Shown in pieces: positions 1,307 to 42,025 of a stretch of DNA of 64,000 nucleotides. The stretch lies in assembly GCA_000146465.1 (NCBI GenBank), contig CP001947.1; one strand, written 5' to 3'. A program made the translations under genes and the position numbers. How positions within the stretch are numbered: the stretch's first letter is position 1; each line of letters opens with the position of its first letter. The notes beneath the pieces were generated by a model. It was not told the origin of the DNA and ran no database searches. It saw only the letters and a list, made by a program, of their open reading frames with translations.

Positions 1307-1851
1307 TCAAGACGAGACTGCTCTGTTCGACAAGTTAAGTGCCTCTGCCTGCTCGGCAAGCTCTCGGGCTCTTTGCTCATCGGCCTTTCTCTTGATTATG
1401 CTATCTTTCATGTGGAATCTGTGCTTGAAAAGATGGCCCTTTGCCTGCTTGTAAAACACTCGGAAGTCTTCCTTGGTGATCTCTCCATTGGCCCTCATCT
1501 CCTTCAGCATCTTCCTCATTGCACGAATCTTCTTCATCCATAGCTCCTTCCTTGGCATTCTTGCATTGGCCGTACCAAAGCGCTTTCCAGGCCCCATGTG
1601 CCTCCCCTTCTTCTTGGCTGCCAGGCGCTTTCGGAGTCGTCCTCTGCTGGTGTGCTTGTCCTGCTTCATAATAATCACATTGTCTTGTATCAGCTGCCTA
1701 ATCTGATCCCGAGTGGTTGCTCCGTTGAGCCTCTCAATTTCGTTGTTATCCAACCAAAGCTTCTTCTTCCCACATCCTAGGATGTCTGCTGCCAAACGCC
1801 TGACTCTCTCCTCGTTCGACCTTCAAATTAGAAATGATCCATCACTTACAT
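1307..1851 (-). CDS. RPL19: 60S ribosomal protein L19e, spliced. Exon 2 is 1307..1820; exon 1 is only 'AT' at 1850..1851.
   Basis: The ORF matches L19e (LAADILGCGKKKLWLDNNE...) but begins at a TTG with no in-frame ATG. The minus strand upstream reads aaaAT|GTAAGTGATGGATCATTTCTAATTTGAAG|GTCGAAC. Removing the 29-nt intron gives MSNEERVRRLAADILGCGKKK, which aligns residue-for-residue with yeast MANLRTQKRLAASVVGVGKRK. AAAAATTTGCACCCTAAAA lies immediately 5' of the ATG. Confidence 0.8.
1821..1849 (-). other. Spliceosomal intron (29 nt) in RPL19, splitting the start codon as AT|G
   Basis: GTAAGTGA 5' end, branch-like TCTAAT 8 nt before the 3' AG. The frame and conserved N-terminus are restored only when it is removed. 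Confidence 0.7.
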
Positions 1852-1870
1852 TTTTAGGGTGCAAATTTTT
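1852..1870 (-). promoter_or_regulatory. AAATTT + CCC promoter motif upstream of RPL19
   Basis: Sense-strand AAAAATTTGCACCCTAAAA directly abuts the ATG. Near-identical blocks precede RPL14 and RPS26. Confidence 0.6.
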
Positions 1871-1935
1871 CCGGGCTTTTGCCTAAAGGCCTGATCAAAC
1901 AACTCTCCAAAAACAAGATTTATTCGTCCGAGTCT

Positions 1936-4046: not shown

Positions 4047-4069
4047 TTAAGGGATTAAATTTTTCACGG
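4047..4069 (-). promoter_or_regulatory. AAATTT + CCC promoter motif upstream of RPS18
   Basis: Sense strand ccgtGAAAAATTTAATCCCTTAA immediately 5' of the ATG. Confidence 0.55.
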
Positions 4070-4141: not shown

Positions 4142-4426
4142 TTATTCCTCCAGAAGCATCTTTGTCAACTTCTTCATCCTCTTTCCTGCACGCTTGTGAG
4201 ACCCCAATCTCTTTCGGAGAATCCTCTGTGCCTTGCTATTGTTCTTTGCCTCAATAAGCGAAATAACTTTCTTCTCAAGTGGAGAATAACCGCATAACTC
4301 CTCTGCAACTGAGGCTGCAAACATGCGTATCTTTCCAGACTCCTCGCTGGGCTTCTTGGCTTCTCTCTTCACATCGGGCCTCTTTACTGGATAACGTACT
4401 CGAACTTTCTTGAGAGCGTTCTTCAT
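4142..4426 (-). CDS. RPL36: 60S ribosomal protein L36e
   Basis: The C-terminal 94 aa of the 197-aa ORF match L36e (GYSPLEKKVISLIE...RILRKRLGSHKRAGKRMKK). The internal ATG at 4424-4426 is preceded by AAAATTTTTCTCGGCCCTGCA. The upstream part of the ORF is not L36-like. Confidence 0.8.
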   Translation of the reverse strand: MKNALKKVRVRYPVKRPDVKREAKKPSEESGKIRMFAASVAEELCGYSPLEKKVISLIEAKNNSKAQRILRKRLGSHKRAGKRMKKLTKMLLEE

Positions 4427-4478
4427 TGCAGGGCCGAGAAAAATTTTAATTCTACAAGGATGCAGTCCTTGCAAACCA

Positions 4479-14446: not shown

Positions 14447-14797
14447 TCATGCCAGTCCCTTTTCCTTTAGGAGCTCGTCCTCAACTCTTTTCCTCAGCTT
14501 CATCTGGAATCTCTCGAAATCATTGGTTGTATCCTCCTCACTAATGCTTTCTGGAATGAGCTTTCCTATCTCTTCTGGACTAAGATCCTTAATGTCAAAC
14601 GACTCATCCTCAAGGTGGAGATTAGATATAGAGCACATTTCCCTCTCTCCATCCTTCCTCTGGAGAAGTACAAAGGTTGCATCGATGATGCCAACAATTA
14701 TGCCATATGTTTTTCTTTTTTCTTTGAGTGCAGGTGTCACAATCCTTCCCAGCCTTACTGTCTTCTAAAGTTAGCCAAAAAGAAGCTCACTTACCAT
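14447..14797 (-). CDS. RPL14: 60S ribosomal protein L14e, spliced. Exon 2 is 14447..14764; exon 1 is ATG at 14795..14797.
   Basis: The ORF begins at a GTG. Upstream on the minus strand: aaaATG|GTAAGTGAGCTTCTTTTTGGCTAACTTTAG|AAGACA... The spliced product MKTVRLGRIVTPALKEKRKTYGIIVGIID...TNDFERFQMKLRKR matches eL14 (compare yeast ...LTDFERFQVMVLRKQKR). AAAAATTTGCCCTAAAA abuts the ATG. Confidence 0.8.
14765..14794 (-). other. Spliceosomal intron (30 nt) in RPL14, immediately after the ATG
   Basis: GTAAGTGA...GGCTAAC...TTTAG. An in-frame TAG inside it is removed by splicing. Confidence 0.75.
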
Positions 14798-14814
14798 TTT
14801 TAGGGCAAATTTTT
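14798..14814 (-). promoter_or_regulatory. AAATTT + CCC promoter motif upstream of RPL14
   Basis: Sense AAAAATTTGCCCTAAAA directly 5' of the ATG. Confidence 0.6.
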
Positions 14815-14862
14815 GTGTAGATTTAACCGTAGGAAAGTACACTGGTGAATCCCCAGGCACAG

Positions 14863-41481: not shown

Positions 41482-41838
41482 TTAATTATGAGAGCTTACC
41501 CTGTTCGGATTGAATCCATATCTGATCTTTCTTCCTTGAGAAGAGCGGACTCTAACTATCTTGGCGTGGCACGCACAAGACACGCAGAACTGTGACTTAT
41601 AGCCCATCCTTGGAACTTCAAACACTTCGTAGATGGTTTTCTCTTTCAGATCATCAAATGAGGCCTGTTCAATGAGAGACTGAATCCTAAATCTTTTGAT
41701 TGCCTTATCCTTAGGTGTTACACTGCCGCACTTATCGCACTGGATGGGCTTCACACTTCCTCTGTTCTTCTTTGATCTCCCGTGGTTTCTTCTTTTAACT
41801 GTCTATAAAATTAGAATGCTTCGCCTATCACTTACCAT
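41482..41838 (-). CDS. RPS26: 40S ribosomal protein S26e, spliced. Exon 2 is 41482..41802; exon 1 is ATG at 41836..41838.
   Basis: Minus strand: gaATG|GTAAGTGATAGGCGAAGCATTCTAATTTTATAG|ACAGTTAAAAGAAGAAACCAC... gives [39 protein letters not shown]..., a clear S26e (compare [23 protein letters not shown]...VPKDKAIK). AAAATTTTTGCCCTTAAGA abuts the ATG. Confidence 0.8.
41803..41835 (-). other. Spliceosomal intron (33 nt) in RPS26, immediately after the ATG
   Basis: GTAAGTGA...TTCTAAT...TATAG. Same architecture as the RPL14 and RPL19 introns. Confidence 0.75.
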
Positions 41839-41858
41839 TCTTAAGGGCAAAAATTTTC
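41839..41858 (-). promoter_or_regulatory. AAATTT + CCC promoter motif upstream of RPS26
   Basis: Sense AAATTTTTGCCCTTAAGA directly 5' of the ATG. Confidence 0.6.
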
Positions 41859-42025
41859 GAGTCAATGAACTTTGCCATTCGCAGGTTTGATCAAGTGCAG
41901 AATTCTGTTCCACCAGCCATTCCATTCTTAAAGACGGAAGAGAAATGATCCAATTCTATTTTAGTTCTTTAACTTTTAAATAAGGTACGTACTTACCCCA
42001 AACAATAACAGAACCTTGCATTTGG

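Follow-up and report, generated by a model that had tools for sequence, protein, structure and literature searches.

The closest described counterparts of the intron reported here are the miniature, 5′-biased introns of Encephalitozoon (Katinka 2001, Lee 2010 and Grisdale 2013, via PMC6349667 and PMC3629993), which are ∼25–30 nt long with GT-AG boundaries and a GTAAGT 5′ splice site, carry a branch box near the 3′ AG, and lie at the start of the coding sequence of ribosomal protein genes behind an AAATTT/CCC leader. All of these features recur in the eL19 (RPL19) gene of E. intestinalis; the difference is that its 5′ splice site is placed one base earlier, so that exon 2 supplies the G of the ATG. 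The introns of E. cuniculi are all GT-AG with a strict GTAAGT 5′ motif, and retention of any of them disrupts the reading frame through a stop or a frameshift (PMC3629993). The Encephalitozoon U1 snRNA carries an ACUUACC motif for recognition of the 5′ splice site (Belkorchia 2017, PMC5499648), and the intron complement is the same in E. intestinalis and E. cuniculi (Corradi 2010).

RNA-seq has confirmed splicing of all previously annotated E. cuniculi introns, 30 of the 37 introns being removed in less than half of transcripts, while alternative downstream acceptors are rare (<5%) and were seen in three genes (Grisdale 2013, PMC3629993). The short introns of this species are spliced in a minority of transcripts only (PMC3629993, PMC6349667). 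The AAATTT and CCC signals of E. cuniculi ribosomal protein genes were described by Peyretaillade 2009 (PMC2803860), where 5′ UTRs shorter than 7 nt were found by RACE and where a supplementary table lists 'L19 AAAAAATTTGCACCCTGAAA (intron)' for E. cuniculi. The L19 intron was annotated there before Grisdale 2013, and it is the confirmation of the annotated introns as a set in that study that supports its splicing.

A further class for comparison is that of the 'start codon introns' (Nielsen and Wernersson 2006, PMC1626468), which are likewise located at the start codon and are enriched in short, lysine-rich, conserved ribosomal proteins, but which are phase-0 and follow an intact ATG. Introns that disrupt the start codon are described as 'relatively rare' in eukaryotes (PMC1626468). 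The preliminary description of this DNA had called the split start of eL19 unusual, and this is correct for eukaryotes generally but not within the clade, where it belongs to a known intron set.

A split start codon in the eL19 gene

The eL19 gene of Encephalitozoon intestinalis almost certainly carries a miniature, extremely 5′-biased spliceosomal intron typical of Encephalitozoon/Ordospora ribosomal protein genes, with the joining of AT to G rebuilding the start codon. The sequence anatomy, the conservation in eight taxa, the match to existing annotation and the onset of coding constraint that underlie this reading come from the present analysis, and splicing is taken from the literature on E. 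cuniculi introns. The gene is encoded on the minus strand of the window, by which we mean the whole 64-kb stretch of DNA that was analysed, and its parts are as follows (a slash within a motif, here and below, marks a splice junction).

1852..1875, minus strand: ribosomal protein gene leader, with an AAATTT-like box GGAAAAATTTG, a CCC box (CACCC) and 5 nt (TAAAA), then ATG
1850..1851, minus strand: coding portion of exon 1, 'AT', supplying positions 1 and 2 of the start codon; gene annotations of E. cuniculi, E. hellem and Ordospora begin at the homologous A
1821..1849, minus strand: spliceosomal intron, 29 nt, phase 2 within codon 1, with boundary motifs near-invariant in eight taxa
1849–1843, minus strand: 5′ splice site GTAAGTG of the intron, conserved in eight taxa
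1848–1846, minus strand: TAA that follows the unspliced ATG, read from the sequence
Between the 5′ splice site and the branch box, minus strand: variable middle of the intron, ATGGATCATTTC, differing among taxa in sequence and length
1830–1825, minus strand: branch box TAATTT, conserved, with predicted use as the branch point
1822–1821, minus strand: 3′ AG of the intron, followed by G in all eight taxa
1307..1820, minus strand: exon 2, in which G1820 completes the ATG and codons 2–171 follow, with the TGA stop at 1309–1307

The leader at 1852..1875 (−) is presumed to comprise the core promoter, the transcription start region and a very short 5′ UTR of eL19. Behind it, an ATG is present at 1851–1849 (−) and is directly followed by TAA. 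The order on the minus strand across the 5′ end of the gene is ggAAAAATTTgcaCCCtaaaa-AT, then the 29-nt intron GTAAGTGATGGATCATTTCTAATTTGAAG (1849–1821), then GTCGAACGAGGAGAGAGTCAGGCGTTTGGCAGCAGAC..., with exon 2 beginning at G1820. Joining AT to G gives a 171-aa eL19 beginning MSNEERVRRLAADILGCGKKK..., and the string across the junction becomes CACCCTAAAAATGTCGAACGAGGAG once spliced, its unspliced counterpart being AAAATGTAAGTGATGG.

On the minus strand, the eL19 frame extends from 1819 to its TGA stop (1309–1307). It offers no usable in-frame ATG, as the preliminary description had noted; the first one downstream is Met52, within the conserved domain. The same description placed an in-frame TGA nine codons ahead of the conserved block. 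This TGA (1825–1823 (−)) is part of the proposed intron and precedes the Ser codon by two codons and the RLAA block by nine. Retention of the intron breaks the frame, with the unspliced mRNA reading ATG-TAA and the TGA at 1825–1823 standing in the eL19 frame. The boundaries are GT-AG with a GTAAGT 5′ splice site, as in miniature introns of the Encephalitozoon type, and the length of 29 nt (25–34 nt when relatives are included) is inside the published range of 22/23–76 nt. An antisense ORF at 1713–1886 (+) was rejected because it arises mechanically, on the strand opposite to this conserved ribosomal protein gene.

Identity of the spliced product and existing annotation

The spliced product contains the Pfam Ribosomal_L19e N-terminal domain at residues 5–54 (8.4e-22) and the L19e C-terminal domain at residues 56–145 (1.9e-31); the two domains, PF01280 and PF25476, score 77.3 and 108.5 bits and both pass their curated cut-offs of 25. 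Residues 2–169 align with residues 2–169 of the yeast L19-A chain, in agreement with the yeast-like N-terminal spacing that had been proposed. A structure match is to chain M9 of the E. cuniculi ribosome 7QEP over the full length of 171 aa (5.9e-98), and protein searches give identities of 89% to E. cuniculi L19 and 87% to E. hellem L19.

In an exact-sequence look-up, the 171-aa product was found to be identical to ADM11708.1, '60S ribosomal protein L19 [Encephalitozoon intestinalis ATCC 50506]', and to three KAL73... entries. This residue-for-residue match bears out the earlier proposal that removal of 29 nt rebuilds the ATG, and it follows that public annotation of the E. intestinalis genome already includes the split start codon. 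The match also assigns the window to E. intestinalis, and its G+C content of ∼40% fits the value of 41.4% published for that genome (PMC4355639). Its gene order and density agree with those of E. cuniculi, where the order is TFIIB, Erv1/Alr, L19, a hypothetical protein and a CCCH/RING protein.

The split start codon of eL19 exists and had been interpreted correctly; it is nevertheless already known, being annotated in GenBank for E. intestinalis and for sister species; the case is the L19 member of the published miniature intron set, shifted by one base. Phrase searches of the accessible literature for split start codons returned nothing on microsporidia and no published wording that the L19 ATG is split, only annotations that embody it. 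A search for assembled contigs that encode the exact spliced eL19 product found none on record, and the E. cuniculi product was found only on genome assemblies.

Conservation of the intron among relatives

The L19 start was compared in eight taxa, namely E. intestinalis, E. cuniculi, E. hellem, Ordospora colligata and the Logan assemblies SRR29713747, SRR21023581, SRR21279729 and SRR21633403. Public read archives hold at least four further Encephalitozoon/Ordospora-like genomes, to which these four accessions correspond.

The comparison with L19e N-termini of relatives, which had been suggested as a check, revealed the same AT/G design in all eight taxa. The motif AT/GTAAGTG is invariant (8/8), the TAATTT box ends 6–7 nt from the 3′ end of the intron in every case, as expected of a branch box in this class, and in each of the eight the first AG past this box has a G directly after it, so that an ATG is always rebuilt. 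The middle of the intron, 8–17 nt, is free to vary in both sequence and length. An AAATTT..CCC leader with 4–6 nt before the ATG precedes L19 throughout the set.

The L19 gene ranges annotated for E. cuniculi, E. hellem and Ordospora all begin at the A of ATGTAAGT. They span 547 nt in E. cuniculi (three strains), 547 nt in E. hellem and 545 nt in O. colligata, for products of 171, 171 and 172 aa, from which intron lengths of 31, 31 and 26 nt can be deduced, counted from AT/GTAAGTG. The annotated products (MSNEERV.., MSNEKRI.. and MTNEQRV.., respectively) are obtainable only via the AT/G join. An orthologous L19 intron is found at the same site in the sister species. The introns of E. cuniculi (AL590446.1; 7QEP chain M9), E. 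hellem and O. colligata resemble that of E. intestinalis in the AT/G position, the 5′ splice site, the branch box and the leader, and the loci share the upstream neighbours Erv1/Alr and TFIIB, whereas the lengths (31, 31 and 26 nt versus 29 nt here) and the sequence of the middle segment differ. The four SRR relatives have introns of the same design with lengths of 25, 27, 30 and 34 nt. The differences in length among the taxa are not multiples of three, as is expected of non-coding sequence.

From the junction onwards a coding pattern is observed. Over codons 2–11 of L19 in the eight taxa, 5 of the 10 first, 3 of the 10 second and all 10 third codon positions are variable, and the pairwise codon differences are 132 synonymous versus 53 nonsynonymous. 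Translation constraint therefore starts right at the junction, and the N-terminal L19e domain requires the residues encoded there.

In the more distantly related Tubulinosema ratisbonensis and Cucumispora dikerogammari, L19 lacks the intron and opens with an intact ATG at the corresponding site, preceded by an A/T-rich leader of similar kind that contains CCC or CC. Some microsporidian lineages therefore do not have the L19 intron. Nosema ceranae L19 has been marked '(intron)' (PMC2803860).

Sister introns and leaders in the window

Two further miniature introns are located in the window, and leaders of the kind seen at 1852–1875 (−) ahead of eL19 precede these and other ribosomal protein genes.

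14765..14794, minus strand: eL14 intron, 30 nt, ATG/GTAAGTGAGCTTCTTTTTGGCTAACTTTAG/AAG, start codon intact, supported by motif and structure match
41803..41835, minus strand: eS26 intron, 33 nt, ATG/GTAAGTGATAGGCGAAGCATTCTAATTTTATAG/ACA, start codon intact, supported by motif and Pfam
14798–14818, minus strand: eL14 leader with AAATTT..CCC, read from the sequence
41839–41860, minus strand: eS26 leader with AAATTT..CCC, read from the sequence
4047–4066 and 4426–4449, minus strand: leaders with AAATTT..CCC of uS13/S18 and eL36, read from the sequence

Both sister introns have the 5′ splice site ATG/GTAAGTG, one base later than in L19, which agrees with the earlier remark that RPL14 and RPS26 share the intron architecture but keep the ATG intact. 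The eS26 protein is recognized by Pfam Ribosomal_S26e (7.3e-38). The eL14 gene (14448–14797 (−), 106 aa) has no Pfam hit at E ≤ 0.01, and its identity was set by solved microsporidian ribosome structures instead of Pfam: after splicing, its product corresponds to E. cuniculi ECU06_1215 (7QEP chain M4, 4.7e-53) and to the chain that 6RM3 labels eL14. The eL14 of this clade shows how divergent and shortened microsporidian ribosomal proteins are.

Three copies of the motif ATG?GTAAGTG..TAAYTT..AG are present in the 64-kb window and none in 100 Markov-1 simulations, which is more than chance; a looser intron pattern is found at two loci in the window against 0.23 matches expected. All three copies of the motif stand at the start of ribosomal protein genes with an AAATTT..CCC leader ahead of them. 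An AAATTT-like box and a CCC box, with the ATG 4–6 nt further on, are present in five of the five ribosomal protein genes examined in the window, and this shared promoter-to-ATG layout independently marks 1851–1849 as the true initiation codon. The leader agrees with the promoter signals published for E. cuniculi ribosomal protein genes and is a practical marker for true start codons in the E. intestinalis genome.

Alternative readings of the eL19 start

One alternative retains the 5′ splice site and moves the acceptor downstream to the AG at 1801–1800 (−), which would give a 50-nt intron (1800–1849) and a protein read from ATG-CGT (MRLAADIL...), seven residues shorter. We consider this very improbable. 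Such an intron likewise restores an ATG without loss of frame, both in the window and, with a length of 52 nt, in E. cuniculi, and rare downstream acceptors (<5%) have been reported in three E. cuniculi genes (PMC3629993). However, the equivalent distal AG is followed by A, yielding ATA, in E. hellem, SRR21023581, SRR21279729 and SRR21633403, and a frame-preserving AG is absent from this position in Ordospora and in the SRR29713747 relative. Codons 2–8 (SNEERVR), which the distal acceptor would skip, display a coding-type substitution pattern, while the branch box is 6–7 nt from the proximal AG in 8/8 taxa and it is the proximal AG that public annotations take. The distal acceptor is at most a rare by-product.

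A second alternative dispenses with splicing, such that eL19 would be translated from a non-AUG codon (e.g. the TTG at 1795–1793) or from the internal Met52. The 162-aa eL19 with a TTG start that appears in the ORF listing and in the Logan gene calls is in keeping with this, as is the report that most short-intron transcripts of E. cuniculi are unspliced (PMC3629993). It would, however, leave unexplained the invariant AT/GTAAGTG...TAATTT..AG/G of eight taxa, the promoter-to-ATG spacing common to four other ribosomal protein genes, and the coding constraint on codons upstream of the TTG. A start at Met52 would moreover remove the Pfam L19e N-terminal domain, and the intron-less L19 of Tubulinosema and Cucumispora starts with ATG at the homologous place; the likelihood of translation without splicing is, in our estimate, close to nil. 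The level of unspliced RNA also affects how cDNA is to be interpreted. The preliminary description had proposed that a cDNA colinear with the genome would refute the intron, but this is invalid here because unspliced cDNA is expected alongside spliced cDNA in this group, where unspliced transcripts are reported to be abundant (PMC3629993, PMC6349667).

Scarcely credible, finally, is a junction shifted to ATG/TAAGTG...GAAGG/TCG, which would keep the start codon intact and give an identical mature mRNA that cDNA cannot distinguish, but which would make this a non-canonical UA-GG intron, against the report that E. cuniculi introns are all GT-AG with a strict GTAAGT (PMC3629993), the alignment of both sister introns in the window as GTAAGTG...AG, and the pairing of the U1 motif ACUUACC with GUAAGU (PMC5499648).

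A sequencing error or frameshift at the eL19 start was ruled out by the occurrence of the same layout, with differing intron lengths, in eight independent genomes.

Discussion

Expression of eL19 through the 29-nt GT-AG intron can be envisaged as follows. Transcription presumably begins past the AAATTT and CCC boxes, a few bases ahead of the ATG. The proposal that exon 1 consists of just 'AT' stands for its coding part but not for the transcript, in which a very short 5′ UTR also belongs to exon 1, as indicated by the RACE data for E. cuniculi (<7 nt, PMC2803860). From the same data, exon 1 of eL19 is probably composed of a few leader bases and AU, with the 5′ splice site therefore within ∼10 nt of the cap. 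Recognition of AU/GUAAGUG would fall to the major (U2-type) spliceosome, the U1 snRNA being predicted to pair with GUAAGU, and the A of UAAUUU that lies 7 nt from the intron's 3′ end is likely to serve as the branch point. AU would then be ligated to the G after the first downstream AG to give AUG-UCG-AAC.... Because unspliced eL19 mRNA reads AUG-UAA, it should yield nothing, and only the spliced fraction would be productive for eL19.

The base at position −1 of the eL19 5′ splice site is U, which, unlike the G found there in eL14 and eS26, cannot lengthen the pairing with the ACUUACC motif of U1. This suggests a slightly weaker site in eL19 than in the two sister genes. The predicted outcome of intron retention also differs among the three genes: an AUG-UAA in eL19 (1846–1851 (−)), MVSELLFG followed by a stop in eL14 (14765–14797 (−)) and a short peptide of 11 protein letters in eS26 (41803–41838 (−)).

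It may be speculated that the one-base-early 5′ splice site of eL19 is functional and not an accident of intron sliding, with the AUG-UAA start-stop, in combination with the low splicing efficiency reported for this group, regulating how much eL19 is made through splicing gating or ribosome stalling. If so, unspliced eL19 would carry a minimal AUG-UAA ORF instead of coding for a short junk peptide. The AT/GTAAGTG arrangement is kept across Encephalitozoon, Ordospora and relatives, but conservation of ATGTAA is not independent support for a regulatory role because it is forced by the combination of ATG with the GTAAGT consensus. We regard such a function as unlikely.

The eL19 gene demonstrates that a microsporidian start codon can be assembled by splicing, although this instance adds nothing past the public annotations and published descriptions. 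The intron class is of interest for research on minimal spliceosomes, given a 5′ splice site within ∼10 nt of the cap, a length of ∼25–34 nt and the low splicing efficiency that has been reported. The main stake of the eL19 case is correct annotation. Gene callers without splice models mis-start L19, as both the ORF listing and the Logan calls arrive at a 162-aa product with a TTG start. Among the prokaryote-style Logan calls for L19 on microsporidian contigs, starts are placed at TTG (P0001, 162 aa; P0007) or at GTG (P0006, P0009), and in the call P0004 the start is a GTG inside the intron, giving a product of 175 aa that begins 'MVICRTNEK..'.
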